Made by a program: the position numbers and the translations under genes
The notes under the pieces: generated by a model
What the model was told of the DNA's origin: nothing
The model's input: the letters and a program-made list of their open reading frames with translations, nothing else
Databases searched by the model: none
NCBI GenBank assembly: GCA_012520975.1
Contig: JAAYNF010000128.1
Coordinates: forward strand, 12,380 to 76,379
Direction of reading: 5' to 3'
Source: Clostridiaceae bacterium
GTDB taxonomy: Bacteria > Bacillota > Clostridia > Saccharofermentanales > UBA5734
Length of the DNA: 64,000 nt
In this document: positions 6,225 to 24,841 of the stretch, piece by piece
Layout of the letters: every line of letters begins with the position of its first letter
Numbering within the stretch: the stretch's first letter is position 1

Positions 6225-6377
6225 GTTATAATCCGGGCACAAACCGTTAAGAAAAAGGCCTAAGATCGGGATTGTCGTCCATCCTGTTTTGGTTGTATGC
6301 TATGGGTATCCGCAAAATCGGGTATCTGTTGCCCCCAATACGTCGACAGTGATCAGCATGACGAGCAGAGGTGAAAA

Positions 6378-7973: not shown

Positions 7974-7976
7974 CCT

Positions 7977-9260
7977 ATGGCTATGACCATGACACAAAAA
8001 ATTCTGGCTGCGCACGCAGAGTTGGAAAGGGTTCATGCCGGTCAGCTGATTGAAGCTCGATTGGACCTTGTGCTCGGCAATGACATTACCACTCCGCCGG
8101 CTCTGACTGTTTTTGACCAAATCGGCAGCAACGACGTTTTTGATCGTGAAAAGGTGGTCCTTGTACCCGATCATTTTACCCCGAACAAAGACATCAAATC
8201 GGCAGAGGCCTGCGCCAAGATCCGCCGATTTGCCCGCACATACGATTTGACCCACTATTACGAACAGGGTGAGCCAGGTATGGGTGTTGAGCATGTCATT
8301 TTACCGGAAAACGGACTGGTGGCGCCGGGAGACGCCATTATCGGCGCCGATTCGCATACCTGCACCTACGGAGCTCTGGGAGCTTTTGCCACCGGAGTCG
8401 GCAGCACCGATCTGGCTTGCGCCATGGCAACCGGCCAAACATGGTTCCGTGTCCCGGCCGCCATTAATTTTGTGCTCGAAGGTCAATTGCAGCCCGGCGT
8501 CACCGGCAAAGATCTCATCCTGCACCTGATCGGCCTGATCGGTGTCGATGGGGCCTTGTATCAATCGATGGAATTTACCGGCCCCGGCGTGGCCACACTG
8601 AGCATGGCCGAACGTCTGACCATCTGCAACATGGCCATTGAAGCCGGTGGTAAAAACGGCATCTTCCCGGTCGATGGGAAGACCTTGGCTTACATCGAAA
8701 TGTATGCGCCGGATCGTTTTGCCAAAAAACAATATGCAATTTTCGCCGCCGATGATGATGCCGATTATGTGCGGACGATCGTGGTTGATCTGGCCAAGGT
8801 TCCGTTGACCGTCTCGTTCCCGCATCTGCCGGAGAATACAAGAGTTGTCGGTTCTTTCGATAAAATTCCGATCGACCAAGTTGTTGTCGGCTCTTGCACC
8901 AATGGACGCCTCGAAGATATGCGCGTGGCCGCCCAGTATCTCAAAGGGCGAAAGGTGGCCAAGGGCTTGCGCCTGATCATCCTGCCGGGGTCTCAGCGTG
9001 TCTGGCGCGAGAGTTTAAAAGAGGGCTTGTTTGAAATTTTCGTCGATGCCGGCGCGGTTGTCAGCGCGCCGACCTGCGGGCCCTGTCTGGGTGGCCATAT
9101 GGGGGTTCTGGCCAAAGGCGAACGTTGTGTCTCAACCACCAACCGCAATTTTGTCGGTCGTATGGGGCATCCGCAATCAGAGGTTTATCTGGCCGGTGTA
9201 CCGGTGGCCTGTGCGTCTGCCGTCAAGGGATATATCGCCGGTCCGGCGGATCTGGATTAA
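7977..9260 (+). CDS. leuC: 3-isopropylmalate/citramalate dehydratase large subunit
   Basis: Aconitase-family motifs '[15 protein letters not shown]', '[12 protein letters not shown]' and '[12 protein letters not shown]'. 427 aa. GGAGG RBS. Confidence 0.9.
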
Positions 9261-9274
9261 AGGGGGAAGTCGTT

Positions 9275-9760
9275 ATGAAGGCAAAAGGCAAGGTTTTTAA
9301 ATATGGGGCCAATGTGGATACAGACGTGATCATCCCGGCCCGCTACTTGAATACAGCCGATCCGTTGGAGCTGGCCGGCCATTGTATGGAAGATATCGAT
9401 AAGACTTTTGTCAACCGGGTCAAACCGGGAGACATGATTGTCGCCGGTCCTAATTTTGGCTGCGGATCCTCTCGCGAACACGCTCCGATCGCCATCAAAG
9501 CCAGCGGCATCAGTTGTGTCATTGCTCCCAGTTTTGCTCGTATTTTTTACCGTAACGCCATCAACATGGGATTGGCTATCCTGGAAAGCGCCGAGGCCAG
9601 CGCCGCTGTCAATGACGGCGATGAGCTGGAGGTTGATTTCGATAGCGGACTGATCCGCAATTTGACCGTTCGACAAACCTACCAAGCCAATCCTTTCCCG
9701 GAATTTATCAAGAGAATCATTGCGGCCGACGGCCTTGTCGGCTATATCCGCCGGAAATAG
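9275..9760 (+). CDS. leuD: 3-isopropylmalate dehydratase small subunit
   Basis: '[15 protein letters not shown]' and '[14 protein letters not shown]'. ATG 9275 follows a GGGGGAAG RBS. The track start 9125 lies inside leuC and was rejected. Confidence 0.9.
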
Positions 9761-9785
9761 AATCTTTCAAAGGAGATCAACATCC

Positions 9786-10895
9786 ATGGCCAGATTCAGA
9801 ATAGCGGTCATTCCCGGAGACGGCATCGGTCCGGAGGTCATCAACAGCACGCGCCACGTATTGGACGCGGTGGGTAAAAAATTTAATCATGATTTTAAAT
9901 ATGAAGAGCTGCTTGCCGGAGGTATCGCCATTGATACAACCGGAGAGCCGCTTCCTGCATCCACGCTGGAAACCTGCAAGAGCTCGGATGCGCTTTTGCT
10001 GGGCGCTGTCGGTGGGCCGCAATGGGATAATTTGCCCGGTCATATGCGCCCTGAAAAAGCACTCCTCGGTCTCAGGTCCGGACTGGGGCTTTATGCCAAT
10101 CTGCGGCCCGCGATCCTCTATCCGCCGTTGGCATCGGCCTGCCCCTTGCATCCGGCCACGGCAGCTCGCGGCATCGACATGATGTTTGTCCGCGAATTGA
10201 CCGGTGGCATTTATTTTGGTGACCGCGGCCGCCGGGAAGAGGAAAACGGACTCGAAGCTTACGACACCGAAACATATAGCGTGAAGGAAATTGAACGCAT
10301 TGCGCGCATGGGTTTTGAGCTGGCCCGCGGCCGCCGCAAAAAATTGACCAGCGTGGACAAGGCCAATATCCTCGAAAGTTCACGCCTTTGGCGAGAAACC
10401 ATCGTCAAGTTACACGCAGAATATCCGGATGTTGCGTTGGAACACCTTTATGTTGACAATGCCTCGATGCAGTTAATTTTGAGACCGGACAGTTTTGATG
10501 TTGTTGTAACCAGCAATATGTTTGGTGATATTCTTTCTGACGAAGCAGCTATGATCACCGGTTCGATCGGCATGCTGCCGTCGGCATCCCTTGGTCAGCC
10601 CGGTCGTCCCGGAATGTACGAACCGATCCATGGTTCGGCACCGGACATTGCGGGACAGGATAAAGCCAATCCCTTGGCCACAATTCTTTCCGGCGCCATG
10701 ATGCTGCGTCTGGCCTTCGGATTGCCAACCGAGGCCGATGCCGTCGAGCAGGCGGTGAATCAGGTCTTATCCGCCGGTTATCGCACGGTCGATATCATGG
10801 ACAAAAGCGGTTCGGCCGACGGTCTGAAGCTGGTTGGCACCCGTGAAATGAGCAATCTGGTTGTTGCCGCCATTTTGAAAGGAGCTCAACAATGA
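9786..10895 (+). CDS. leuB: 3-isopropylmalate dehydrogenase
   Basis: '[14 protein letters not shown]' and '[26 protein letters not shown]'. 369 aa from ATG 9786. Confidence 0.9.
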
Positions 10896-12568
10896 GAAGC
10901 GATGCAATGAAATCAAAACCTGTGCGTGCCTCCCATCGGTCACTGCTCTATGCTCTCGGTATGTCCGAAGAGGAGATGAAACGCCCCTTTATCGGGGTTG
11001 TCAATTCCTTCAATGAAATTGTGCCGGGTCATATCCATTTGCGCACGCTGACCGATGCCGTTAAAGCCGGTATTCGTAACGGCGGCGGTGTGCCTTTTGA
11101 ATTTCCGGCTATTGCGGTTTGCGATGGTCTGGCTATGAATCATGCCGGAATGAAATATTCTCTGGTCAGTCGCGACGTCATCGCCGACAGTTGTGAAATT
11201 ATGTTGATGGCGCACGCCTTTGATGCTGTGGTTTTTATTCCCAGCTGTGACAAGGTGGTGCCGGGTATGCTCATGGCGGCCGCCCGAATGGATCTGCCCA
11301 GCGTTTTTGTCAGCGGTGGCCCCATGCTTCCCGGGCGCTACAAAGACGAAAACATCGGTCTGAGCAACCTTTTTGAAGCCGTTGGCGCTCATGCCGCCGG
11401 TAGAATCAGCGACCAGGATCTGACCCGCATGGAAATGTCCGCCTGTCCGACCTGTGGAAGCTGTTCGGGAATGTACACGGCCAATACCATGAACTGCCTG
11501 ACCGAAGCGCTCGGATTGGCTTCTCCGGGAAACGGCACCATTCCCGCCGTCTACGCCGACCGGCGCCGCTTGGCTTACAAAGCCGGTTTGACAGCGGTTG
11601 AGCTGTTTAAAAACGGGCCGACAGCCCGACAAATTCTATCGCCGTCCGCCATTCGCAACGCTTTGCGCGTAGATATGGCTCTAGGTGGATCGACCAATAC
11701 CATTTTGCATCTTCTGGCCATCGCCCGGGAAGCCGGTTATGAGCTGAGCATGTCGGAAATCAGCCGCATCAGCGACAGCACGCCGCAGCTCTGCAAACTG
11801 AATCCGGCCGGTCAGGATTTCATTACCGACCTCAACGACGTTGGGGGCATTCAAGCTGTCATGGCAGAGCTCAACAAAAAAGATCTGATTGAAGTGGAGG
11901 CTTTGACGATCGATGGAACGGTTTCCAGTCGAATTGCCTCCTTGAAAGGCGCGGATGGTAAGGTTATCCATTCGGTCGACGCACCCTATGCCCTTGACGG
12001 GGGTTTGGCGGTCCTGACCGGAAACTTGGCGCCGGACGGCAGCGTGGTCAAAAAAGGCGCTGTTTTGCCTGAAATGCTGCAACATGAGGGGCCGGCTCGC
12101 GTTTTTGATGGTGAAGAAGAAGTATCGGAGGCTATTTTCAATCAGATGATCCGTCCCGGAGATGTGGTGGTCATTCGTTTTGAAGGTCCACGAGGCGGAC
12201 CGGGCATGCGTGAGATGTTGTCGCCAACCAGCGCGTTGGCCGGCATGGGTTTGGACAATTCCGTTGCGTTGATTACCGATGGTCGCTTTTCCGGTGCGAC
12301 GCGTGGCGCCTCAATTGGGCACGTTTGTCCGGAAGCCGCTGTGGGCGGCCCCTTGGCCTATGTTCGCGAGGGGGATCGGGTTCGCATCGATATTCCGGCT
12401 CGCCGCATTGACCTTCTGGTCTCTGCCGAAGAACTTGCCTCCCGTAATCCGGCTCCGCGACCGGATCGCGGCCTGAAGGGTGTTCTGGCTCGATATCAAC
12501 AGCAGGTCGATGCCAGCAATTGCGGTGCCCGCATGCTATTACCTCGAAAGGAGGGAGAGAAATCATGA
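10892..12568 (+). CDS. ilvD: dihydroxy-acid dehydratase
   Basis: 'HRSLLYALG', '[13 protein letters not shown]', '[14 protein letters not shown]' and '[16 protein letters not shown]'. ATGA overlap with the leuB stop. Confidence 0.95.
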
Positions 12569-14271
12569 ACGGAGCAGAACTGGTCATTGATTTTTTAATT
12601 CGTAAAGGCGTAAAGAAGGCCTTTGGTTATCCCGGCGGACCGGTCATCATCCTCTATGAGGCTATTTACAAATATGAGTTTCCTCATGTGTTGACCCGGC
12701 ATGAACAAGGCGCGGTCCATGCCGCCGAGGGTTATGCCAAGGTGTCCGGCCAACCCGGTGTTTGTTTGGCCACGTCCGGGCCCGGAGCCACAAACTTGGT
12801 TACCGGCTTGGCCGACGCTTATCTGGATTCGGTTCCTGTGCTGGCGATTACCGGAGCTGTGGCTCGGGAATCAATCGGAACCGATGCCTTTCAGGAAGCT
12901 GACATTACCGGCGTGACGCAACCGATTACCAAGTACAACTATTTGGTTATGGATCCGGAGGAACTGTTGCCGATTCTGGAGGAAGCTTGGACCTTGACGA
13001 CCGAAGGCCGGCCGGGACCGGTTCTGGTCAATATTCCCAAGGACATTCTGTCCATGACGATCGAATTGTCGCAAATTAAAAGTTCGAGCTATGCCCGGCA
13101 TCGACCGCCCAAGATCAAAACGCAGGCTTTGTCGGACAAGGTTTATGCGGCGCTGGCCCGAAGCCGACGGCCCTTGCTGTTGGCCGGTGGCGGTTGTGTC
13201 ATCTCCGAAGGCGGTACCGATGATCTGCTTCGGTTTGTGGATGGTCTTGGAATTCCTGTTGCCACGACCTTGATGGGCAAGGGTGCGATTCCCGAGGATC
13301 ATCCCTTGTTTTTAGGTATTTTGGGTATGCATGGAACACCTCAGGCCAACACGGCGCTGGGCAACTGCGATCTGCTGCTGGCTGTCGGCAGCCGCTTCAG
13401 TGATCGGATCATTGGCGACTTTAAGAGCTACAACCCCGATGGCAAGAGGCAGATCATCCATGTCGATATTGATCCGGCCGAAATAGGCAAGAACGTCAAG
13501 GCCGATTTGGGGATTGAGGATGATGCGGCCGGTTTTTTTGAAGCAATGCTGGCGGTTCGGCCCGAAATAGATTATTCTGCGGACTGGTCGGCGTGGAAAC
13601 AAGAACTGGATCGCAAGAAACAAGAGTATCAGGCGGTCAAAAACGCCATGTACGAGCCCAGCCGACCATTGACGCCTCAATTTGTCGTCCATCAGGTTGC
13701 CAATGCGCTGAAAGGCCAAAATCCGGTTGTTGTCACCGATGTCGGTCAACACCAGCAATTTGTCGCCCAGCACTATCCCGTTGAATCGCCGCGATCCTTT
13801 ATCACCTCAGGGGGGTTGGGCACAATGGGCTTTGGGCTGCCGGCGGCGATCGGAGCATCGGCGGCTGCCCCTGATCGAACGACGCTTTTGTTTGCCGGAG
13901 ACGGCGGTTTCCAAATGACAATCCAAGAGCTTGGTGTCTTGGCCAAGCTGCGGTTGCCGTTAAAGATTTTCATCATGGACAATTGTTGTTTGGGTATGGT
14001 TCGGCAATGGCAAGAATTGTTCTTTGACCGCCATTACAGCCAGACCATCTTGGACAACAACCCCGACTTCGTGATGATTGCCGAAGCCTACGGCCTGCCG
14101 GCCGGAACAGCCTGTGACGGCGAATCCCTCAAAGAGCAGATTAACCACGCATTGGCGGCCGAGGGTCCTTACATTGTTCATTGTTTGATCAATCCGGATG
14201 AAAATGTTTTTCCCATGATTCCGGCCGGCAAGATGCCTCAGGATCTTATCATGCCCGGTATGGGTGACTGA
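12565..14271 (+). CDS. ilvB: acetolactate synthase (AHAS) large catalytic subunit
   Basis: TPP enzyme with '[13 protein letters not shown]' and '[15 protein letters not shown]'. 568 aa from ATG 12565, in an ATGA overlap with ilvD. Confidence 0.9.
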
Positions 14272-14292
14272 ACAAGCCCATAATCCCGGATC

Positions 14293-14330
14293 AAATCGCC
14301 TCTGCCGCCACAACGACCGGGGCGATTTTT
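14293..14330 (+). terminator. candidate intrinsic terminator after ilvB
   Basis: AAATCGCCTC (14293-14302) pairs with GGGGCGATTT (14319-14328), including one G.U pair. 16-nt loop, followed by TT. The loop is long. Confidence 0.45.
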
Positions 14331-14341
14331 ATCCCGTTAAA

Positions 14342-14370
14342 TTGACACAAGGGGGACTGCTATCTATAAT
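14342..14370 (+). promoter_or_regulatory. consensus sigma-A-type promoter for the metal ABC pair
   Basis: TTGACA (14342-14347), 17 nt, TATAAT (14365-14370). Both hexamers are perfect matches. Confidence 0.65.
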
Positions 14371-14376
14371 TCTAAA

Positions 14377-14391
14377 TGCAAGTGTTTTGCA
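14377..14391 (+). promoter_or_regulatory. inverted repeat just downstream of the -10 (candidate metalloregulator operator)
   Basis: TGCAA-gtgtt-TTGCA (5-5-5) starts 7 nt after the -10. Confidence 0.3.
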
Positions 14392-14420
14392 ACAAGCCGG
14401 AATGAACAAGGGTGAGACCG

Positions 14421-15173
14421 ATGCCAACCGAAAATCGAAAAATTAGCCATCAACCCGCACAAAACATCCATCCTCGGCACAACTTGCATTTGAATCATGT
14501 AACCGTCAGGCGCGGCGGCAAATGTATCATTACGGATATCACTTTCAGTTTAGCCTGCGGCGAATTGGTTGTGGTAACCGGCCCCAACGGAGGCGGTAAA
14601 AGCACACTGTTGCGAACCATTCTTGGAGAATGGCCATACGAAGGCACCATCATTTTTTCTGATTGTCAGGGAAATATTTCAACGCGACCGACAATCGGTT
14701 ACATGCCTCAGCATTTGATCTTTGACCGTCAGGCGCCGCTGACCGTCGCAGATCTCATGCTGGCCAACTCCAGTCGATGGCCTGTTTTTTTGAGTCATCG
14801 GCAAAAAGACCGGCAGGAAATCAGCAAAATACTGGAACAGGTTGACGCCTCAAGGTTGATCGATCGTCGTTTGGGCGAGCTGTCCGGTGGTGAGCTTCAA
14901 CGGGTAACGTTGGCGTTTGCCTTGAATCCGATCCCGGACATCTTGCTGCTGGATGAACCGGTTTCGGCGTTGGACGTCAAAGGACAAGCCTTATTCTATC
15001 AGCTGGTGCTGGATCTCCGGGCGCGCTATGATCTTCTCACCTTGGTTGTTTCGCACAATCTGGATATCGTGACAAAATATGCCACCTCACTCATTGTTCT
15101 CAACCGCACCATCCGGTTCTCCGGTCCGACCCGGGATGTTTTGGAAGCACGTGAAAGAGGTACCACGATATGA
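14421..15173 (+). CDS. metal-type (ZnuC/TroB/MntB-like) ABC transporter ATP-binding protein with a His-rich N-terminal extension
   Basis: Walker A 'GPNGGGKST', signature 'LSGGELQRV' and Walker B 'LLLDEP'. The N-terminus 'HQPAQNIHPRHNLHLNH' is His-rich. ATG 14421 follows AAGGGTGAG. Confidence 0.8.
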   Translation: MPTENRKISHQPAQNIHPRHNLHLNHVTVRRGGKCIITDITFSLACGELVVVTGPNGGGKSTLLRTILGEWPYEGTIIFSDCQGNISTRPTIGYMPQHLIFDRQAPLTVADLMLANSSRWPVFLSHRQKDRQEISKILEQVDASRLIDRRLGELSGGELQRVTLAFALNPIPDILLLDEPVSALDVKGQALFYQLVLDLRARYDLLTLVVSHNLDIVTKYATSLIVLNRTIRFSGPTRDVLEARERGTTI

Positions 15174-16024
15174 ATGTCTGGTACACGTTGGTCGAATGGT
15201 TGCCATTTTCTTTTTTGCAATATGATTTTATTAAAAACGCTTTGTTGGCGATCTTGCTGATTGCTCCGATTTTTGGTTTGGCCGGAACCATGGTTGTCAA
15301 CAACCGTATGTCTTATTTTTCAGATGCTCTAGGCCATTCGGCTTTGGCCGGAATCGCGCTGGGAACGTTATTGGGCCTTCAGGATTTTTTACTTTCGATG
15401 ATTTTGTTCAGTGTTCTGTTCGGATGGCTATTGTCGGGTATCAAAAACAGGGCTCGATCATCAACGGATACAATCATTGGTGTTTTTTCCGCTACGGCTG
15501 TCGCCTTGGGAATTGCTTTGCTTTCACGTCAGGGTGGGTTTACCCGTTATAGTAATTTTTTGATCGGTGATATCTTGGCCATCCGCCCCTCGGATATTCT
15601 CATTTTACTCATCGTTCTGGTTCTTCTATTGCTTTTCTGGATCTTATTTTTCAATCGGCTGCTCATTCTGAGTGTCAATGCTTCACTGGCGCGTAGCAAG
15701 GGAATTTCCGTTCGCGCTCTGGAAATAGCCTTTATGACCCTGATCGCTGTTTTGGTTACTGTTTCCATCAAATGGATCGGTACCTTGTTGATCAATGCTT
15801 TGCTCATTCTTCCGGCGGCTGCTGCGCGAAATGTGGCCGGCAGCATTCGATCCTATCATGGACTGTCGGTCTTGTTTTCCCTTGTTTCCGGCGTTTCCGG
15901 TTTGATCTTGTCTTTTTATCTGGATACATCAGCCGGCGCAACCATTGTGTTGTGCAGTGCCGTGATCTTTGCGGTCAGTTGGCTGGTCGGCCGGGGAAAA
16001 ACCGACAGTCGAGAGGAGCCATGA
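15170..16024 (+). CDS. ABC-3 family metal transporter permease (ZnuB/TroCD-like)
   Basis: Polytopic membrane protein. 'NNRMSYFSDALGHSALAGIALG' is typical of the ABC-3 family. ATGA overlap with the ATPase stop. Confidence 0.8.
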   Translation: MNVWYTLVEWLPFSFLQYDFIKNALLAILLIAPIFGLAGTMVVNNRMSYFSDALGHSALAGIALGTLLGLQDFLLSMILFSVLFGWLLSGIKNRARSSTDTIIGVFSATAVALGIALLSRQGGFTRYSNFLIGDILAIRPSDILILLIVLVLLLLFWILFFNRLLILSVNASLARSKGISVRALEIAFMTLIAVLVTVSIKWIGTLLINALLILPAAAARNVAGSIRSYHGLSVLFSLVSGVSGLILSFYLDTSAGATIVLCSAVIFAVSWLVGRGKTDSREEP

Positions 16025-16139
16025 GTAGATAAAAAAGCGCCGGATTTCGCCGTATGTAGGGTAATCAAGCGCTTTTGCTTCACATATTTTCGATGCTTTG
16101 CCGCTATGAGACAGCTGGATCCGGGGGTTTTGGCTCTTG

Positions 16140-17144
16140 TTAGAGAATCTCGATTTCCTTGTTCCAGCTCATCATTGCCCGCAGCTCGCGACCAACCTGC
16201 TCCACTTGGTGTTCCGATTCAAGACGGCGACGAGACAGGAAGTTCGGGCGACCGGCTTGGTTTTCTAAAATCCAGTTTTTGGCGAAAACACCTTCCTGAA
16301 TTTCCTGCAAGACCTTTTTCATCTCTTTTTTGGTCTCGTCGGTGATGATCCGGCGACCAACACTATAGTCACCGTATTCGGCGGTATCGCTGATTGAGTA
16401 GCGCATCAGGGATAAACCGCCCTGAGCCACCATGTCGATGATTAATTTCATTTCATGCACACACTCATAATAGGCATTTTCAGGATCATATCCGGCTTCA
16501 ACAAGCACTTCAAATCCGACCTTCATCAACTCGGTAACACCACCGCAAAGGACGGCCTGCTCACCGAAAAGATCGGTTTCGGTTTCCTCACGGAAGGTTG
16601 TGCTGAGCAGGCCGGCCCTGCTGCAACCGATGCCGTAACCATAATCAAAAGCAATATCCCGAGCCTTGCCGGTGTAATCCTGATGGACGGCAAACAGTCC
16701 GGGCACGCCGCGCCCGGCTTGATACTGGCTACGAACCGTGTGGCCGGGTCCTTTAGGCGCGATCATGAAAACATCAATGTCCGCCGCCGGAATAATTCGA
16801 CCGAAATGGATGTTAAAGCCATGGGCGAATGCCAGTGCTTTACCGGTCGTGAGATGGGGCTTGATATCTTTCTCATATAAATCCGGTTGCTTCTCATCAC
16901 TGACCAGAATCATAATAACGCTGGCCATCTCAGCCGCTTGACTTGATGTGGCAACTTTCAGACCGACAGCTTCGGCTTTCGCCCATGACGGGCTGCCTTC
17001 ATAAAGTCCGACGACGACGTCAAAACCGCTTTCACGCAGATTTAAGGCATGGGCGTGCCCTTGGCTGCCAAAGCCGATGATGGCGATGGTCTTGCCATCC
17101 AAGGCATGTGTGCGGCATTCATTTTCTTTGTAGATTTTTTTCAT
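16140..17144 (-). CDS. ilvC: ketol-acid reductoisomerase (class I)
   Basis: '[23 protein letters not shown]' Rossmann motif. 334 aa. Confidence 0.95.
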
Positions 17145-17185
17145 GGAAATCCTCCTTTAACTTTGGTCGGGTTCTGGCAGAGTGA

Positions 17186-17695
17186 TCACTCTTTTTCCGG
17201 ATGCGTCACATTCATGGCTCGCACGCCGCGTTCAATGGCAATTGGGCCGGTACGAACCAGCTCAAGAATACCGTAAGGCTCCAGCATACCTTTGAGGGCA
17301 AGGATTTTATCGTCTTTGCCGCTGAGCTCGATGGTCAATGTGGTGGGCGAAACATCAATGACGTGGCCGCGAAAAATATCGATAATTTGAAGAATCTGTG
17401 CCCGTGACGCGGCTTCGGCCTTGACCTTGATGAAGACCAGTTCTCGGGAAAAAGATTCATCGGGGGACAAGTGTCGGACCAACAGAACATCCGGCAATTT
17501 GTGGAGCTGCCGGATAATCTGATTGATCTGCTCATCGCTGCTGCGCAAGGTAATCGTAATTCGGGAAATCGCAGGGTCCTGAGTTACGCCGACAGTCAGG
17601 CTCTCGATATTGTAGCCGCGACGGGCAAACAAGCTGGAAACCCTGTTGAGGACACCGGCTCTGTTTTCAACCAGAACAGAAAGGCTTTTCAACAT
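17186..17695 (-). CDS. ilvN: acetolactate synthase small (regulatory) subunit
   Basis: ACT domain 'LSVLVENRAGVLNRVSSLFARRGYNIESL'. 169 aa. GGAGGAGG RBS. Confidence 0.9.
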   Translation of the reverse strand: MLKSLSVLVENRAGVLNRVSSLFARRGYNIESLTVGVTQDPAISRITITLRSSDEQINQIIRQLHKLPDVLLVRHLSPDESFSRELVFIKVKAEAASRAQILQIIDIFRGHVIDVSPTTLTIELSGKDDKILALKGMLEPYGILELVRTGPIAIERGVRAMNVTHPEKE

Positions 17696-17826
17696 AGAAG
17701 ACCTCCTCCTTTAAGCGCTACACAACAAAACTACCACTTTTAAGCGGTGGCTTCAATCGGAACATTTGATGAAGTTACAAAACGATAAGAAATATCGATC
17801 ATTCCTGCTCCGGAATCCGCCTTGCG

Positions 17827-18246
17827 TCAATCCGGACTATTTTTCAACAGATCGCGGATTTCCTCAAGCAGAATGATGTCTTCGGCTTTGGCCGGCGGCG
17901 CTTCTTGCTCTTCCTCTTCTTTTTTTCTTTGTAATTTGCCAATGGCTTTAACCAACAGAAAAATGACCAAAGAGATAATCAGGAACTGCAAAACGACCTC
18001 GATTAAATGACCGTATGTAACCGCGACCTCCGGTTTGACAATTTCCGAACCGCTCATCTGCGCCGGACTGAGAATAATTTTAAAATCGGTAAAACTGATG
18101 CCGGCCGTCAGAAATCCAATGATCGGCATGATGATGTCATTGACGAAAGAACTGACGATTGCGCCAAATGCCGCGCCAATAACAACCGCAAACGCAAGAT
18201 CGAGAACGTTACCGCGCAAGATGAACTTTTTGAATTCAGATAGCAT
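17827..18246 (-). CDS. mscL: large-conductance mechanosensitive channel
   Basis: 'FKKFILRGNVLDLAFAVVIGAAFGAIVSSFVNDIIMPIIG'. 139 aa from the ATG at 18246, 9 nt after GGAGG. The track start 18291 was rejected. Confidence 0.9.
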   Translation of the reverse strand: MLSEFKKFILRGNVLDLAFAVVIGAAFGAIVSSFVNDIIMPIIGFLTAGISFTDFKIILSPAQMSGSEIVKPEVAVTYGHLIEVVLQFLIISLVIFLLVKAIGKLQRKKEEEEQEAPPAKAEDIILLEEIRDLLKNSPD

Positions 18247-18384
18247 ACACTTAAACCTCCGTATGATTTGGAATGAATGATCGTTCTTCACCTCAGTATA
18301 GCGAAATTAAAGCCGATAGTGAAGTGGGCAGGGGAAAGCATGCGCCGATCCGGAATGGTTACCTTGAGCGACTCAATTAGATGA

Positions 18385-18414
18385 TTGACTCATTGGACAG
18401 ACGTATGTTAAAAT
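18385..18414 (+). promoter_or_regulatory. candidate promoter of the SucCD-like operon
   Basis: TTGACT (18385-18390), 18 nt, TAAAAT (18409-18414), with the TG of an extended -10 at 18406-18407. Confidence 0.5.
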
Positions 18415-18422
18415 AAATCACA

Positions 18423-18437
18423 TGAAACATCGTTTCA
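18423..18437 (+). promoter_or_regulatory. perfect 15-bp palindrome (candidate operator)
   Basis: TGAAAC-atc-GTTTCA lies immediately downstream of the predicted start site. Confidence 0.4.
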
Positions 18438-18442
18438 CACAA

Positions 18443-18455
18443 TGAAATAATTTCG
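18443..18455 (+). promoter_or_regulatory. IclR-box-like palindrome
   Basis: TGAAAT-a-ATTTCG. The core GAAATnATTTC matches the recalled E. coli IclR box TGGAAATNATTTCCA at 11 of 14 defined positions. Confidence 0.4.
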
Positions 18456-18507
18456 ACGAGCAATTCACCTGTTGCAGCAACATTTTGTCAATGAAGGGGA
18501 TGTTAAA

Positions 18508-19791
18508 ATGGCCAAATTTCTCGAATACCAAGGAAAAAATTGGTTGCGAAAAGCCGGTTTGCCCATACCGGACGGTCAGGTGGCCTATACAGCGGAACAG
18601 GCGCGCGATATTGCTCGGCAATTTGGCAAACCGGTCGCCGTTAAAGGGCAGGTTCAAGCTGGTGGGCGAGGAAAGGCCGGCATCGTCAAGTTGGTTGATA
18701 CACCGGATTTGGCCGAGCAGGCAGCGACGCAGATTCTGTCGACCCAAGTCAGAGGTATGCCTGTACGAGCCGTTCTGGTAGAGGAAAAATTAAGCATTAA
18801 AAAAGAATATTACTGTTCGATTGTGGTGAATGGTGCCCGTGACGCCAGGACACCGCTTTTGATGTTCAGCCCTGAAGGTGGCATGGACATTGAGAGTGTT
18901 CCCGAAGATCAAATTTATCGGCTTAATCTGGATCCGATCTTTGGACTGCAACAATATCAAGCCATTGATCTTTGTGTTCGAGCCGGAATTGACCGTCAAG
19001 ATCTGGATAAATTCACGACCTTTCTAACCAAGCTGGCGGCGGTGTATCGCCAATACGATTGTCAGACTCTTGAGATCAATCCTCTTGTGGTCACCGAGCA
19101 AGAGGACATAGTTTGTGCTGACTGTAAGATGGAAATCGATAATAGCGCGGTCAGCCGCCATCCGGAATTTGGTATTAAAATTGCTCGTGATTTCCCGGGA
19201 GAGATCACCGAACTTGATGAGATCGGCTGGTCCATTGAGGAAACAGATGCCAGAGGAACCGGTTTTTTGATGAATATGGGCTTTGACGAAGTAAGTCCGG
19301 GCTATATCGGCTATCATCCGATTGGTGGCGGATCGGCCATGATGGGTCTGGACGCGCTCAACCATGTCGGATTAAAACCCGCCAACTATGCCGATACCAG
19401 TGGCAATCCGGTCGGTTCAAAAATTTATCGCGTGGCCAAATGTGTTTTATCGCAACCTAATATCGATGGTTATTTATTGGGTGGATTCATGATGGCCAAT
19501 CAAGAGCAGTGGCATCATGCGCATGCTCTGGTCAAAGTGTTATGCGAGATGCTGCCCGAGAAAAAACCTGGTCTGCCGTGCGTTTTACTTTTATGCGGCA
19601 ACAAAGAAGAGGAATCTCTGGCCATCTTGAGGAAAGGCCTGGCCGAACTGATGACCCCCGATGGGCCGGGCCGCCGAATTGAAATCTACGGTAAGGAACA
19701 TGTGACGGATACGCTTTTTATTGGTCAACGTTTACTGGAACTTAGCAAGGCGTACCATTTGGAGAAAGTACAAGGAAAGGAGAACGGCTGA
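18508..19791 (+). CDS. SucC-like ATP-grasp subunit of an NDP-forming acyl-CoA ligase (substrate unknown)
   Basis: By-eye alignment to SucC: 'FLEYQGK', 'AVKGQVQAGGRGKAG' and 'TLEINPLVV'. The C-terminal half is divergent ('YADTSGNPVGSK'). 427 aa from ATG 18508. Confidence 0.7.
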   Translation: MAKFLEYQGKNWLRKAGLPIPDGQVAYTAEQARDIARQFGKPVAVKGQVQAGGRGKAGIVKLVDTPDLAEQAATQILSTQVRGMPVRAVLVEEKLSIKKEYYCSIVVNGARDARTPLLMFSPEGGMDIESVPEDQIYRLNLDPIFGLQQYQAIDLCVRAGIDRQDLDKFTTFLTKLAAVYRQYDCQTLEINPLVVTEQEDIVCADCKMEIDNSAVSRHPEFGIKIARDFPGEITELDEIGWSIEETDARGTGFLMNMGFDEVSPGYIGYHPIGGGSAMMGLDALNHVGLKPANYADTSGNPVGSKIYRVAKCVLSQPNIDGYLLGGFMMANQEQWHHAHALVKVLCEMLPEKKPGLPCVLLLCGNKEEESLAILRKGLAELMTPDGPGRRIEIYGKEHVTDTLFIGQRLLELSKAYHLEKVQGKENG

Positions 19792-19792
19792 T

Positions 19793-20083
19793 ATGTTTGA
19801 GATTGTCGAAAGAACAATTGTTGTCTCCATCGATACCTCCAAATGCCCGGACTGTGTGACCAAGGCATGTGAGGCGGCCTGCGCCAAGTATGCCCGGGGC
19901 ATCATCAAAATTGATACGAACGGTTGTGCCTCAACCGGTGACCTGAGCAAGCAAGAAGTACTTAGGCTGGGTACCGAGTGCCTAGCCTGTGAGTTTGCCT
20001 GTAAACATGATGGAAATCAAGCTATTACAATCAATATTCCCATCACCGGACTCGATGAATATAACCGGAAACGCGGCCAGTAA
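19793..20083 (+). CDS. 8-Cys ferredoxin-like small protein between the ligase subunits
   Basis: 96 aa. 'IDTSKCPDCVTKACEAAC' (C-x2-C-x4-C-x3-C), a lone Cys45, and 'CLACEFAC' (C-x2-C-x3-C). Starts 1 nt after the upstream stop. Confidence 0.55.
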   Translation: MFEIVERTIVVSIDTSKCPDCVTKACEAACAKYARGIIKIDTNGCASTGDLSKQEVLRLGTECLACEFACKHDGNQAITINIPITGLDEYNRKRGQ

Positions 20084-20093
20084 GGAGGATTAT

Positions 20094-21017
20094 ATGGGTA
20101 TCATGGTTCACCAAGAATCCAAAGTGATTATTCAGGGCATCACCGGCCGAGAAGGTTCGCTGCGCACAAAATATATGAAGGAATACGGCACCAATGTCAT
20201 TGGCGGCACCAGTCCGGGCAAGGCCGGTGAAATCGTGTTTGGTGTTCCGGTTTTCAATACCGTGCGGGAAATCGTCCGACAATTCGGCGCCATCGATTTT
20301 AGTGTAATCTTTGTGCCCGGCCACCGTCTCCTGTCGACAGTCATGGAGGCCTGCGATGCTGGTGTCAAGAACATCGTACCGTGTGTGGAAGGCACACCGA
20401 TCCACGATATTATGTATATGATTGAATATGCCCGAATTCGCGGCTCGAGAATTATCGGCCCCGGATCAATCGGAATTATCACGCCCGGGCAAGCCGTTGT
20501 CGGCTGGTTGGGTGGAAATGTCGGCTGGGCCAATCAGTTTTTTGTTCAAGGTAGCATTGGCGTGATCTCGCGCAGCGGCGGTCAGTCGGGAACCATCCCT
20601 TGGGTTTTGCGCGAGGGCGGTTTTGGCGTCAGTACGGTCGTTCATACAGGTACTGAACCGGTTGTAGGCACTTCTATGGCCGATCTGCTTCTGGAGTTTG
20701 AGGCCGATCCGGCAACGCGCGGCGTGGCGATTTATGCGGAAATCGGCGGCACTTTGGAAGAGGAATGCGCCGAAGTTATCGCATCCGGGCAATACACCAA
20801 GCCACTGGTTGTGTATGTGGCCGGTGCTTGGGCGCCGGAAGGGCAACGATTCTCCCATGCGTCGAATATTGTTGAGCGGGGTCGCGGTTCGGCAAAAAGC
20901 AAAATTGCCGCCATTACCAAGGTTGGTGGCTTAATCGCCGAGACCCCGACCGATATTCCGGTTCTTTTAAATCGAACCTTACCTTTGGATTTTGCTATTA
21001 CCAAGAACAAACAGTAA
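20094..21017 (+). CDS. SucD-like CoA-binding subunit of an NDP-forming acyl-CoA ligase
   Basis: 'KVIIQGITGREGS', 'NVIGGTSPGKAG' and 'GVISRSGGQSGT'. 'RFSHASNIV' sits at the SucD phosphohistidine loop. RBS is TAAGGAGGA. 307 aa. Confidence 0.7.
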   Translation: MGIMVHQESKVIIQGITGREGSLRTKYMKEYGTNVIGGTSPGKAGEIVFGVPVFNTVREIVRQFGAIDFSVIFVPGHRLLSTVMEACDAGVKNIVPCVEGTPIHDIMYMIEYARIRGSRIIGPGSIGIITPGQAVVGWLGGNVGWANQFFVQGSIGVISRSGGQSGTIPWVLREGGFGVSTVVHTGTEPVVGTSMADLLLEFEADPATRGVAIYAEIGGTLEEECAEVIASGQYTKPLVVYVAGAWAPEGQRFSHASNIVERGRGSAKSKIAAITKVGGLIAETPTDIPVLLNRTLPLDFAITKNKQ

Positions 21018-21097
21018 AAACCTTCAGGGATGCATCGATATAGGCTTTGGAGATGGTAGACAAACCCTGGCTGGTTTGCTTATGTCGTGGATGTAGG

Positions 21098-22210
21098 CTA
21101 TTTAAGAATTTCTTGGATGGCCTTTAGCAATCGGTCAACATTTTCCTCTTTGGCACCATATCCCATCAGACCGATCCGGATAACCTTGCCGGCCAGATCC
21201 CCAAGGCCGCTTCCGACCTCAATCAGATATTGGTCGCGTAGCCTTGCACGCAGGGCTTTCTCGTCGATGCCTTGTGGAACTTTGACCGTATTGAGCATCG
21301 GCAAACGATAAGGCTCGGCAACCAGCATCTCCCAACCCATTTCCGAGAGACCTGCTATCAGGCGAGCATGGGCTTTTTGATGCCGGAGAAAAACCTGTTC
21401 AAGACCTTCTTCCAGTACGTTATAAAGCGACTGGTAAAGGCCGTAGAGCATATTGATGGGCGCGGTATGATGATAAACCCGGCTGGCGCTGGCCCAATAG
21501 GCGGTCAGCAAGTTCATGTCCAAGTACCAGTTGGGTACTTTGCTGGCCCGATTGGTAATTTTTTCCATGGCACGATCGGAAAAGGTGATCGGTGCAATGC
21601 CCGGCGGGCAAGAGAGACATTTCTGGCTGCCGGAATAACAGACGTCAACATGCCAGTTGTCGACTTCGACGGGCATACCGCATAAACTGGTTACGCAATC
21701 AAGCAGATATAGGCTGTCGGTTGACTTCAGAAGGTCGCCGATTTCCCGGGCCGGATTTAAGACGCCGGTTGATGTTTCGGCATGAACCATGGCTACGATT
21801 TTATACTGATTCTGTTTAAGTTTGTCCGCCGCTTGGTCGATCGAAACAGGCTGGCCCCACGGAAAATTCAAAACGTCTACATCAGCGCCGAGGCGTGTGG
21901 CTACATCAATCATCCGATTACCAAAGACTCCGTTAGCCAGAACGAGGACCCGGTCGCCCTGCTCAATGGTGTTGACAAAAGCCGTTTCCATGCCGGCCGA
22001 ACCTGTGCCGGAAATGGGTATCGTAAAGGTATTCTTTGTTCCCAAAACAATAGCCAAGTTGGCCTTGATTTCATCCATAATCTCGATAAAGAAAGGATCC
22101 AAATGGCCTAATGTCGGTCTTGACAAGGCTTGGTAGGTTGAGGGTGCAACGGGGCTCGGCCCCGGTCCAAGCAAAAGAACATTCTGTACGCGATCCAATA
22201 GATTATCCAC
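21098..22210 (-). CDS. class V aminotransferase (serine-pyruvate / alanine-glyoxylate aminotransferase family)
   Basis: 'LLLGPGPSPV', 'ISGTGSAGME' and the PLP-lysine context 'YSGSQKCLS'. 370 aa. GTG start 5 nt after GGAGGAG. Confidence 0.85.
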   Translation of the reverse strand: MDNLLDRVQNVLLLGPGPSPVAPSTYQALSRPTLGHLDPFFIEIMDEIKANLAIVLGTKNTFTIPISGTGSAGMETAFVNTIEQGDRVLVLANGVFGNRMIDVATRLGADVDVLNFPWGQPVSIDQAADKLKQNQYKIVAMVHAETSTGVLNPAREIGDLLKSTDSLYLLDCVTSLCGMPVEVDNWHVDVCYSGSQKCLSCPPGIAPITFSDRAMEKITNRASKVPNWYLDMNLLTAYWASASRVYHHTAPINMLYGLYQSLYNVLEEGLEQVFLRHQKAHARLIAGLSEMGWEMLVAEPYRLPMLNTVKVPQGIDEKALRARLRDQYLIEVGSGLGDLAGKVIRIGLMGYGAKEENVDRLLKAIQEILK

Positions 22211-22334
22211 TTTTACTCCTCCTTCATGCTCTGACGAAAGGCATCAGAATGAAATTAATTTTTAAAATTGCTTACTACAATATTATCACAATTTCTTTGC
22301 CGGTCAATTGGTTTTTCTCCGGTTGTACCGATGG

Positions 22335-22363
22335 TTGCAAAGAAATTATGTGTATGCTATGAT
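22335..22363 (+). promoter_or_regulatory. candidate promoter of the IclR-family gene
   Basis: TTGCAA (22335-22340), 17 nt, TATGAT (22358-22363), preceded by TGc (extended -10). Confidence 0.5.
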
Positions 22364-22377
22364 TTCACCAAGTGAAA
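22363..22377 (+). promoter_or_regulatory. inverted repeat overlapping the -10/+1 of the iclR-family promoter
   Basis: TTTCAC-caa-GTGAAA (6-3-6, perfect). Confidence 0.4.
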
Positions 22378-22397
22378 CCCGAAAGGTTGTTGGTCCG

Positions 22398-23189
22398 ATG
22401 GCACAAAAACTGTCTAAATCAAACCAATCCATCGAAAAAGTTCTGTTTATTATTGAGATCATGGCCAATGAAAGTGGCCCAATGCGGTTACAGGACATTG
22501 CCGAACGGGCCGGCATACCGGCCAGCACGACGTTGCGGCTGGTCAACACGCTTTTGCGACATGGCTATGCCCACCAAGATGCCTATTCGCAAAGGTATCA
22601 TCTTTCGTTGAAATTCATGCAAATCGGCAACAAGATTCATAATCAGATCAGTTTGCGAGGTATTGCGCGTCCATTCCTGCTGGAGCTGGCTCAACGTTGT
22701 CAGGAGGCCAGTTGCTTGGCCGTTGACCACAATATGGAGGTTGTCTATACCGATGTTGTGGAAGGACCGGATAATATGCTCAAGATTATGCAGCACATTG
22801 GCAAAAGAGCGCCCATGCACTGCACCGGTGTCGGCAAGCTCATGTTGCTGAATTATAATGAGGAGAAGTTGGACAACTTTATCCAAAGCAAAGGCCTGCC
22901 GGTTTTGACACCCTACACCAAGGTGACCAAGGCGGCATTGCTGGCCGATCTGGAAAATTGCCGGGAACAGGATTATGCGTTGGACGATGAAGAGTGTGAA
23001 ATTGGTGCTCGCTGTGTAGCCGGACCAATTCGAGATTATACCGGCAAGATCATCGCCGCGATCAGTGTTTCCGGACCGACATCCCGCTTGACTCTTGAGC
23101 GGACGCCGGCGATTATTGCGGTTGTTAAAGAAATCGCTGCCAGAATATCCCAGCAAATGGCCTTTGAAGAAAGGCCGCCAAAGGATTGA
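22398..23189 (+). CDS. IclR-family transcriptional regulator
   Basis: N-terminal wHTH 'SIEKVLFIIEIMANESGPMRLQDIAERAGIPASTTLRLVNTL' and a C-terminal IclR effector domain. 263 aa from ATG 22398. Confidence 0.85.
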   Translation: MAQKLSKSNQSIEKVLFIIEIMANESGPMRLQDIAERAGIPASTTLRLVNTLLRHGYAHQDAYSQRYHLSLKFMQIGNKIHNQISLRGIARPFLLELAQRCQEASCLAVDHNMEVVYTDVVEGPDNMLKIMQHIGKRAPMHCTGVGKLMLLNYNEEKLDNFIQSKGLPVLTPYTKVTKAALLADLENCREQDYALDDEECEIGARCVAGPIRDYTGKIIAAISVSGPTSRLTLERTPAIIAVVKEIAARISQQMAFEERPPKD

Positions 23190-24382: not shown

Positions 24383-24841
24383 ATGTTGGAAAAAACCTTC
24401 GGCTCCAGGAAAGCAAATACAATTTACCAAGAACGGGTCGGCGCCTATGGCATTGGTTTTGATCACGAGCAAAAAATCCCGGTTGTCATGACACCTCTCC
24501 TTGATGGGAGAACAGGCTGTTTTTTGCCGGGCGGTGGGATTGAGCACAATGAAACCCATGCGGCTTGCATAATTAGAGAATGTCTGGAAGAAGCCGGCCT
24601 GCATGTTATTCCTCGGGAATTAATTTGCAAAATTGACTACTACCATTTTATTGAGCAAACCCGAACCAATATTTATGGAATCGGTTATTTCTATACCATG
24701 GAGATCAAAGGTGTGGTATCCGAACCAACGGAAAAAGACAGCGTTCTGACCTGGCTCACGCTTGCTGAAGTGAAAGAGCGATTGTTTTTCCCCCATCAAA
24801 TCTGGGCGGTTGAACAAGCGTTTCAACACCACGGTCGGTAA
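24383..24841 (+). CDS. NUDIX hydrolase
   Basis: Nudix box 'GGGIEHNETHAACIIRECLEEAG' (GX5EX7REUXEEXGU). Confidence 0.8.
   Translation: MLEKTFGSRKANTIYQERVGAYGIGFDHEQKIPVVMTPLLDGRTGCFLPGGGIEHNETHAACIIRECLEEAGLHVIPRELICKIDYYHFIEQTRTNIYGIGYFYTMEIKGVVSEPTEKDSVLTWLTLAEVKERLFFPHQIWAVEQAFQHHGR

Follow-up and report, generated by a model that had tools for sequence, protein, structure and literature searches.

What reaction is catalyzed by an enzyme of the succinyl-coenzyme A (CoA) synthetase type whose two subunit genes are separated by the gene for a small cysteine-rich protein, and what does that third protein contribute? This question is raised by a locus in a 64,000-nucleotide (nt) stretch of a Clostridiaceae genome (contig JAAYNF010000128.1 of assembly GCA_012520975.1). 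The whole stretch is referred to here as the window, and coordinates are positions within it unless a locus of another genome is named. A beta-like subunit, a small open reading frame (ORF) and an alpha-like subunit are encoded by three co-oriented, closely spaced genes at 18508-21017 (+ strand), which public annotation lists as succinyl-CoA synthetase beta, hypothetical protein and succinate-CoA ligase alpha. In the databases, the three proteins have the accessions MGI6327067-69 and NLM15646-48 and are assigned to a Saccharofermentanales or Clostridiaceae metagenome-assembled genome. With moderate confidence, we interpret the trio as a three-component ADP- or GDP-forming acid-CoA ligase, most likely a malate-CoA ligase of the anaerobic malyl-CoA pathway, with a ferredoxin-like iron-sulfur (Fe-S) subunit. 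The interpretation proceeds from observed gene order, conservation, gene fusions, co-expression and fold class to a predicted complex, metal content, substrate and cluster role. The features on which it draws are as follows.

18508..19791, + strand: beta-like subunit, 427 amino acids (aa), with an ATP-grasp N-terminal half and a divergent C-terminal half resembling citryl-CoA synthetase
19387..19524, + strand: beta region with motifs YADTSGNPVGSK and GGFMMANQEQWHHAH, presumed acid-binding half
19793..20083, + strand: small ferredoxin-like protein (predicted subunit), 96 aa, with its ATG one base past the beta TGA
19844..19882, + strand: Cys motif 1, C18-x2-C21-x4-C26-x3-C30, all four Cys 100% conserved in 108 distinct sequences
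19925..19942, + strand: Cys45 and Asp50, candidate non-Cys ligand position suggested by homologue comparison
19970..20002, + strand: Cys motif 2, G60-x2-C63-x2-C66-x3-C70, with Gly instead of the canonical first Cys; C63, C66 and C70 99-100% conserved
20094..21017, + strand: alpha-like subunit, 307 aa, ten bases past the small ORF and preceded by TAAGGAGGA
20856..20858, + strand: codon of His255, the predicted phosphohistidine, aligned with the 'GHAGA' His of 2yv2 and 2yv1 and invariant in 99 relatives

Conservation of the three-gene architecture

The small ORF is not a chance reading frame, since it has 104 homologues (approximately 95 aa, 48 to 82% identity) and a profile scan detected relatives in 299 species-level genomes. 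Carriers include Desulfosporosinus, Desulfitobacterium, Dehalobacter, Moorella/Neomoorella, Gracilibacter, Oscillospiraceae, Dehalococcoidia, Thermoleophilia, Thermodesulfobacteriota, Syntrophorhabdus and one Bathyarchaeia metagenome-assembled genome (MAG). On the archaeal MAG contig (L082:5154-6683), a beta gene (45% identity) is followed by the small ORF (52% identity), which suggests either transfer of the unit across domains or contamination of the bin.

Gene order was examined from both sides. All 80 genome loci found through the small ORF and with flanks long enough to check had it placed between beta and alpha, in the same orientation as both. Metagenome contigs were searched with beta alone, which yielded 80 loci; counting those with room for the neighbor in question, all 73 contained the small ORF and all 62 contained alpha. 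Conservation of the small gene between the two subunit genes, which the preliminary description of this locus had proposed to survey, is thus borne out.

As that description stated, the 96-aa ORF begins one nt past the beta stop codon and carries eight cysteines, at positions 18, 21, 26, 30, 45, 63, 66 and 70 (C-x2-C-x4-C-x3-C, a lone C, and C-x2-C-x3-C). The term eight-cysteine gene holds for the window protein but not for its family, in which only seven (18, 21, 26, 30, 63, 66 and 70) are conserved, in 99 to 100% of 108 distinct sequences, and Cys45 occurs in 2%. The pattern of this split family, encoded apart from beta, is C-x2-C-x4-C-x3-C ... G-x2-C-x2-C-x3-C, with Gly at the first-Cys position of motif 2 in 96 of the 97 sequences whose second motif could be scored. 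An AlphaFold2 model of the small protein (predicted local distance difference test [pLDDT], 92.7) places C26/C30 and C66/C70 on two helices in a ferredoxin-like arrangement. The protein resembles 2x[4Fe-4S] and 7Fe ferredoxins in size, in predicted fold and in having two Cys motifs that each end in a short helix, and its seven cysteines recall the 7Fe type. It departs from bacterial ferredoxins, which have two C-x2-C-x2-C-x3-C(P) motifs, in the x4 spacer of motif 1, the lack of the first Cys of motif 2 and of a Pro after the last Cys, the conserved C-terminal tail 'P-I-x-G-L-D-E-Y', and in never having been found as a free-standing gene.

The association with beta is covalent in a sister clade. 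An exhaustive profile search of 1.84 billion representative proteins recovered ten full-length proteins of 470 to 541 aa with the module on the C terminus of a SucC-like beta subunit, and a follow-up search extended the fused family to more than 120 clusters. These proteins, approximately 510 to 540 aa long, occur in Zixibacteria, Acidobacteriota, Anaerolineae, KSB1 and other MAGs, and 126 of 128 fused forms have the complete eight-Cys module (both motifs, including the first Cys of motif 2). The window beta shares 39% identity with the fused proteins over 417 residues, and the small ORF shares 35% with their C-terminal ends. Both beta types have the insertion 'RHPE.GI.IAR.F....TELD.I.W..E..D.RGT' and the motifs 'DTSGNP' and 'QEQ.H.A', so that module and beta lineage are the same in the two groups; the groups differ by the fusion, the eighth Cys and the genes nearby. 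In the AlphaFold2 model of one fusion (mean pLDDT, 91; predicted template modeling score, 0.84), the linker (pLDDT, 81 to 92) and the module (90 to 96) are both confident, suggesting fixed docking on beta. Against solved SucCD, the fused protein gave template modeling scores of 0.84 to 0.88 normalized to the solved chain. None of the solved structures of succinyl-CoA synthetase, citryl-CoA synthetase or ATP-citrate lyase covers the extra module; the score normalized to the query is at most 0.66. Judged from these relatives, the module is not unique to the window enzyme, and the whole branch appears to carry it.

Published proteomic data are available for one carrier. In "Candidatus Dichloromethanomonas elyunquensis" strain RM, beta, small ORF, alpha, a CitE-like lyase and malic enzyme follow one another in that order (L037:8717-13695). 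The proteins PROKKA_18948 to PROKKA_18952 of this strain, annotated as SucC-like, hypothetical, SucD-like, citrate lyase beta and malic enzyme, were 13.4, 11.7, 8.4, 11.3 and 6.7 times more abundant, respectively, with dichloroacetate than with dichloromethane, all significantly (PMC8092247, Table S2). In the same data set, the small protein was detected with 13 peptides, 77% coverage and a log2 intensity of approximately 23 (PMC8092247, Table S2). The lengths implied by the coverage fractions (425, 97, 299, 296 and 419) each equal the L037 ORF length (424, 96, 298, 295 and 418) plus one; as the gene order also agrees, the tags can be equated with the L037 genes. The small protein is therefore made in strain RM at an abundance on par with its four operon neighbors and is co-regulated with them. 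The preliminary proposal of a three-component nucleoside diphosphate-forming acyl-CoA ligase with a ferredoxin-like partner is supported by the two-way synteny, the fusions, the fusion model and this co-regulation.

Family placement and probable substrate

Curated hidden Markov model cutoffs and PDB scores served as a proxy for phylogeny in placing the subunits relative to MtkAB, SucCD, CcsAB and AclAB. The features quoted earlier for a beta-like ATP-grasp subunit are all present, with EYQGK at residue 6, KGQVQAGGRGKAG at 46, LEINPL at 188, YADTSGNPVGSK at 294 and GGFMMANQEQWHHAH at 325. Pfam ATP-grasp_2 matches residues 4 to 195 (170 bits; E = 5.5e-50), no match to Ligase_CoA was found, and Citrate_bind was matched weakly. 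The scores fall well below the NCBIfam cutoffs for SucC (237.4 versus 370 bits) and for the malate-CoA ligase subunit MtkA (NF010647; 173.8 versus 604 bits), and the window enzyme is thus not orthologous to MtkA. Over its full length, beta is closest in the PDB to Thermus SucC (207 bits, versus 135 for citryl-CoA synthetase). The divergence of the presumed acid-binding half, also noted earlier, was confirmed: region 19387..19524 aligns to 'NFTDIGGNPPAEKMYK' of citryl-CoA synthetase and 'NYAEYSGDPADWAV' of ATP-citrate lyase beta, where SucC has 'NFLDIGGGAKADVV', and 'DTSGNPVG' replaces the Gly-rich 'DIGGGAKA' or 'DVGGGATK' of SucC. His336 and His337 of beta are invariant among 115 relatives.

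The alpha subunit contains QGITGREGS and GGTSPGKAG, matches Pfam CoA_binding, Succ_CoA_lig and Ligase_CoA, and is closest in the PDB to archaeal SucD (2yv2 and 2yv1). It scores below the NCBIfam SucD cutoff (251.8 versus 336 bits). Its RFSHASNIV segment, placed at the phosphohistidine loop in the preliminary description, indeed aligns without gaps to RMGHAGAII of solved SucD, with SHASN instead of GHAGA and His255 at the position of the catalytic His. As judged by these profile scores, the alpha/beta pair is not a bona fide SucCD. A canonical sucCD paralogue, sought in the examined relatives' loci as a comparison root, was not found there.

Genes adjoining the trio in other genomes point to a pathway. 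A CitE-like lyase of the HpcH/HpaI family lies directly 3' of alpha in approximately 68 of the 80 genome loci and in 57 of 57 metagenome loci, and malic enzyme comes next in approximately 45 of 80 and 43 of 50, respectively. GlcD- and GlcF-like glycolate dehydrogenase genes and an IclR regulator are further frequent operon neighbors. In an Oscillospiraceae genome (L005:2224-11202), the cluster comprises IclR, malic enzyme, HpcH lyase, D-2-hydroxyacid dehydrogenase, LrgA, LrgB, an M24 peptidase/creatinase-like gene, beta, the small ORF and alpha. LrgAB-type proteins are related to the plant plastidial glycolate/glycerate transporter, and the LrgAB pair may be the uptake system.

The lyase, malic enzyme and glycolate genes match the malyl-CoA pathway, and we therefore assign the trio the probable role of an ATP-forming malate-CoA ligase; since the gene that most often comes next encodes malic enzyme, malate is the likely product. 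In this scheme for anaerobic glycolate and glyoxylate breakdown, glycolate would be oxidized to glyoxylate, the CitE-like lyase would condense glyoxylate with acetyl-CoA to malyl-CoA, the trio enzyme would catalyze (S)-malyl-CoA + ADP + Pi -> malate + CoA + ATP, and malic enzyme would convert malate to pyruvate. The enzyme, composed of alpha, beta and the small subunit, would belong to the succinyl-CoA synthetase/citryl-CoA synthetase/ATP-citrate lyase superfamily, with the nucleotide bound in the ATP-grasp half of beta, the acid in its C-terminal half and CoA on alpha, and with His255 of alpha as the predicted carrier of the phosphoryl group. The acyl-CoA ligase class proposed in the preliminary description is supported; the substrate, which that description left open, is probably malate/malyl-CoA, judged from operon context. 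Beta and alpha of the window share 77 to 78% identity with their counterparts in the Desulfosporosinus orientis-type locus L001, and the window enzyme is therefore expected to share its specificity. In the literature, the anaerobic malyl-CoA pathway has been attributed to Syntrophobotulus glycolicus, Desulfofustis, Moorella and a Lachnospiraceae strain, and Moorella species carry the trio operon.

Known ligases offer partial parallels. SucCD (Thermus aquaticus 3ufx, Escherichia coli 1jkj and the Aeropyrum pernix alpha subunit 2yv2) shares the two-subunit core, the ATP-grasp beta, the CoA-binding alpha and the aligned catalytic His. However, the window pair scores below its equivalog cutoffs, has a divergent acid-binding half and a third gene between the subunits, and belongs to a family found with lyase and malic enzyme. 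The window enzyme probably shares the reaction of MtkAB of serine-cycle methylotrophs (malate + CoA + NTP <-> malyl-CoA), and relatives of the window trio are linked to an HpcH/CitE-like gene of putative malyl-CoA lyase type; the window itself is without one in its 64 kb. Unlike MtkAB, the window enzyme is expected to be ATP forming in anaerobes and would include a third, Cys-rich subunit. CcsAB of Hydrogenobacter thermophilus (6hxq) shares 'GNP...K.Y...K..LS.P.I.G' with the C-terminal domain of the window beta and has a two-gene large/small layout. However, CcsA (429 aa) lacks a ferredoxin-like module, the partner lyase of CcsAB belongs to the citrate synthase family rather than to HpcH/CitE, and the window-type context is one of glyoxylate rather than the reductive tricarboxylic acid (TCA) cycle.

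Several observations weigh against parts of our interpretation. The small protein scores below threshold on Pfam Fer4 (E = 0.1 to 0.3; at best 12.8 bits, with a cutoff of 25), and its nearest solved folds in Foldseek, all small single-cluster ferredoxins, are not significant (E >= 0.09; probability, 0.7 to 0.9). The small-family profile likewise gave only insignificant matches to PDB sequences (E >= 0.44), and zinc is in principle an alternative to Fe-S as the ligand of the seven cysteines. The window is also atypical: tblastn searches of its 64 kb with the Desulfosporosinus lyase, malic enzyme, GlcD, GlcF and cupin found no copies, and, as in its two closest relatives (L006 and L059), a glyoxylate-type aminotransferase gene lies beside alpha in place of a nearby lyase and malic enzyme. 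Strain RM dehalogenates dichloroacetate to glyoxylate. The authors of the strain RM study assigned glyoxylate use to glyoxylate carboligase, which was induced approximately 270-fold, far above the trio operon; they reported that the strain has no canonical malyl-CoA lyase genes and left the trio operon undiscussed (PMC8092247). For the clade as a whole, substrate, nucleotide, subunit stoichiometry and metal content are predictions.

Further contrary evidence concerns citrate. The trio could be a citryl-CoA synthetase activating citrate, with the CitE-like neighbor as citryl-CoA lyase and malic enzyme decarboxylating the oxaloacetate formed. In addition to the weak Citrate_bind match, the C-terminal 203 aa of beta alone are closest to the H. 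thermophilus citryl-CoA synthetase large subunit (6hxq_B; E = 6.5e-10 over only 64 residues), ahead of Thermus SucC, and the best NCBIfam match of the lyase is CitE, below cutoff. Moreover, three of four long-contig loci of the fused sister clade adjoin genes for a citrate synthase-type citryl-CoA lyase (above its NCBIfam cutoff), a conserved but unassigned 177-aa protein, aconitase and isocitrate dehydrogenase; two further contigs are short, with little flanking sequence.

L087:8001-15133, L169:6001-13111 and L170:4623-12184: fused beta, alpha, short citryl-CoA lyase, 177-aa protein and aconitase; L087 and L170 also have isocitrate dehydrogenase

However, a citrate synthase-family citryl-CoA lyase is absent from the window and from window-type loci and was found beside the fused clade only. 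Window-type operons are linked to glycolate dehydrogenase-like, 2-hydroxyacid dehydrogenase and glyoxylate-type aminotransferase genes rather than to aconitase and isocitrate dehydrogenase, and the operon is induced on a substrate degraded through glyoxylate. ATP-consuming citrate cleavage would make little sense in such fermenters, and the lyase is about as close to solved malyl-CoA lyases (5ugr and 4l9y) as to CitE-like proteins and CLYBL. We therefore regard citrate as an improbable substrate of the window enzyme. Equally improbable in our estimate is that the trio activates a different small acid of the hydroxy or dicarboxylic type (such as citramalate, itaconate, beta-methylmalate or tartrate), with the lyase cutting the resulting CoA ester. 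Malyl-CoA, beta-methylmalyl-CoA and citramalyl-CoA are all accepted by CitE-like lyases, the RipC itaconate degradation model gives the lyase 147 bits, and the ligase sequence does not reveal the substrate; yet the conserved operon showed neither an itaconyl-CoA hydratase nor a mesaconyl-CoA hydratase, and malic enzyme is its commonest next gene. That the database annotation is correct, with an unrelated small gene inserted into an ordinary succinyl-CoA synthetase operon, seems highly improbable. GenBank and JGI label the flanking genes accordingly and the top full-length PDB matches are SucC and SucD, but both subunits miss the family cutoffs by a wide margin, beta gives no Pfam Ligase_CoA match and has a citryl-CoA synthetase-like motif instead of the SucC 'GGGA' region, and the operon partners are lyase and malic enzyme rather than TCA cycle genes.

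Malate thus remains the substrate we favor. To our knowledge, the ATP-forming step of the anaerobic malyl-CoA pathway has been known by enzyme activity alone since the 1990s, and our literature search, with most subscription journals outside its scope, found no paper naming its genes; if the assignment is correct, this step gains a gene-level identity. Since glycolate is a very abundant algal exudate, the pathway is relevant to carbon turnover in anoxic settings, and human gut metagenome contigs, too, commonly contain the operon. Approximately thirty of the 80 loci found with beta (L107 to L135) are near-identical human gut or gut metagenome contigs whose beta is 74% identical to that of the window; they contain the full operon in the layout of L033, a MAG labeled uncultured Desulfovibrio sp. 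UMGS1582. The pathway may be common in a gut sulfate reducer.

A different arrangement was observed in three Desulfosporosinus genomes, sp. SYSU MS00001, sp. FKB and D. acididurans (loci L008, L010 and L014, approximately positions 6060 to 11300), where beta, small ORF and alpha occur without lyase or malic enzyme. The L008 trio sits behind a sigma-54 PrpR-type activator gene, and an unannotated ORF of the same size occupies that position in L010 and L014.

Possible role of the ferredoxin-like module

The small protein is predicted to dock on the C-terminal part of beta. By ferredoxin logic, C18, C21, C26 and C70 would probably ligate one [4Fe-4S] cluster, leaving C30, C63 and C66 for a second, which could be a [3Fe-4S] cluster or a [4Fe-4S] cluster with a non-Cys fourth ligand at position 50. 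That position is His in 83% of homologues and Asp in the window protein. A His ten residues ahead of the motif 2 Gly was found in 164 of 207 Gly-type modules (79%) and in none of 163 Cys-type modules, a pattern that hints at a 3Cys+His/Asp or [3Fe-4S] cluster. The window protein is an outlier, with Asp where others have His and the extra Cys five residues earlier. The Gly/His pattern and the Asp50/Cys45 pair may reflect a ligand swap; as spacer lengths differ between the groups, the positions compared may not be equivalent.

Two variants were considered and set aside. The missing ligand could be supplied in trans by invariant residues of beta (C185, C206, H270, H336 and H337) or alpha (H184), yet nothing ties these residues to the module. 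A Lewis acid role of the three-Cys cluster, as in aconitase, was judged unlikely as the ancestral state, since the fused relatives have all four cysteines.

The small protein could, alternatively, be an ordinary soluble ferredoxin serving nearby oxidoreductases (glycolate dehydrogenase, malic enzyme or pyruvate:ferredoxin oxidoreductase) and lie between the ligase genes by chance. Its ferredoxin-like spacing and fold and the redox enzymes of many operons would fit such a role. However, its position is kept where no redox gene is nearby (the window, L008, L010, L014 and L049), and it is covalently fused to beta in relatives of a different pathway, where the module is modeled as docked on beta through a confident linker. 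The 'P-I-x-G-L-D-E-Y' tail is also foreign to free ferredoxins, and we consider this explanation very doubtful. The fused clade keeps the module in a citryl-type context, which makes the module specific to the ligase rather than to a pathway. It marks a hidden branch of the superfamily that would act on hydroxy acids and that includes citryl-CoA synthetase-like enzymes.

As the ligase reaction is nonredox, a structural, assembly or redox/oxygen-sensing role of the proposed Fe-S subunit is more plausible than a catalytic one. A more specific and rather speculative possibility is that the module gates ATP-coupled thioester chemistry across this unrecognized branch, either as an Fe-S switch that responds to redox state or oxygen or as a site at which reduced ferredoxin docks. 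The gated enzymes would comprise the split malyl-CoA-type ligases of fermenters and sulfate reducers and the fused citryl-CoA-type ligases of Zixibacteria, Acidobacteriota and others, and the three-Cys second cluster, with Gly for the fourth Cys and a covarying His/Asp, would be the sensing site in the window clade. If so, Fe-S-dependent control of substrate-level phosphorylation or citrate cleavage would be without precedent in the superfamily.

In a full-text literature search, with most subscription journals outside its scope, no third subunit or Fe-S module was found for succinyl-, malyl- or citryl-CoA synthetases, nor any paper on an Fe-S domain of citryl-CoA synthetase; a targeted reading of a 2026 genome survey of the reductive TCA cycle found neither feature. 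The enzyme class and the malyl-CoA pathway are already known; what appears to be new is the architecture with three components, the genes proposed for the pathway step and the existence of fused relatives of the citryl type. If the proposal is correct, an Fe-S subunit is added to a superfamily that has seen decades of structural study without one. Hundreds of database entries are flagged as mis- or underannotated, with the flanking genes as succinyl-CoA synthetase and the small gene as hypothetical. The hypothesis is directly testable, since published proteomics already show the operon expressed.

Flanking genes and minor observations

Regulatory signals and adjacent genes in the window were also examined.

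18385..18414, + strand: promoter-like site TTGACT, 18 nt, TG-TAAAAT, approximately 95 nt 5' of the beta start, from a consensus scan
21098..22210, - strand: class V aminotransferase of the glyoxylate aminotransferase type, convergent with alpha; NCBIfam BhcA match
22308..23189, + strand: IclR-family regulator; NCBIfam BhcR-like, 197 bits, below cutoff

The promoter-like site has 10 of 12 consensus matches and an extended -10 element, by pattern match alone. An Rfam scan of 17600-22400 at E <= 1 detected no element, i.e., no riboswitch or leader, and a terminator scan 3' of alpha found none that was convincing. The top NCBIfam match of the aminotransferase is the aspartate-glyoxylate aminotransferase BhcA (221 bits, under the cutoff). 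A counterpart with 65 to 66% identity comes after alpha in L006 and L059, and the gene is a probable functional neighbor of the trio. The IclR-family regulator, which has 33% identity to its IclR counterpart in the Desulfosporosinus cluster, belongs to the unit with uncertainty, and its real start may lie downstream of 22308.

The wider neighborhood of the trio is of a housekeeping nature (branched-chain amino acid biosynthesis, mscL and rimP-nusA-infB). The branched-chain amino acid genes (6378-17695) are split, with citramalate synthase, leuC, leuB, ilvD and ilvB on the + strand and ilvC and ilvN on the - strand; a pair of genes for an ATP-binding cassette ATPase and a permease lies between the two groups (14412-16024). 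On the other side, a 152-aa ORF (24383-24841) between a Gfo/Idh/MocA oxidoreductase and a glycoside hydrolase family 35 beta-galactosidase gave no NCBIfam match at E <= 1e-10 and looks Nudix-like by eye.

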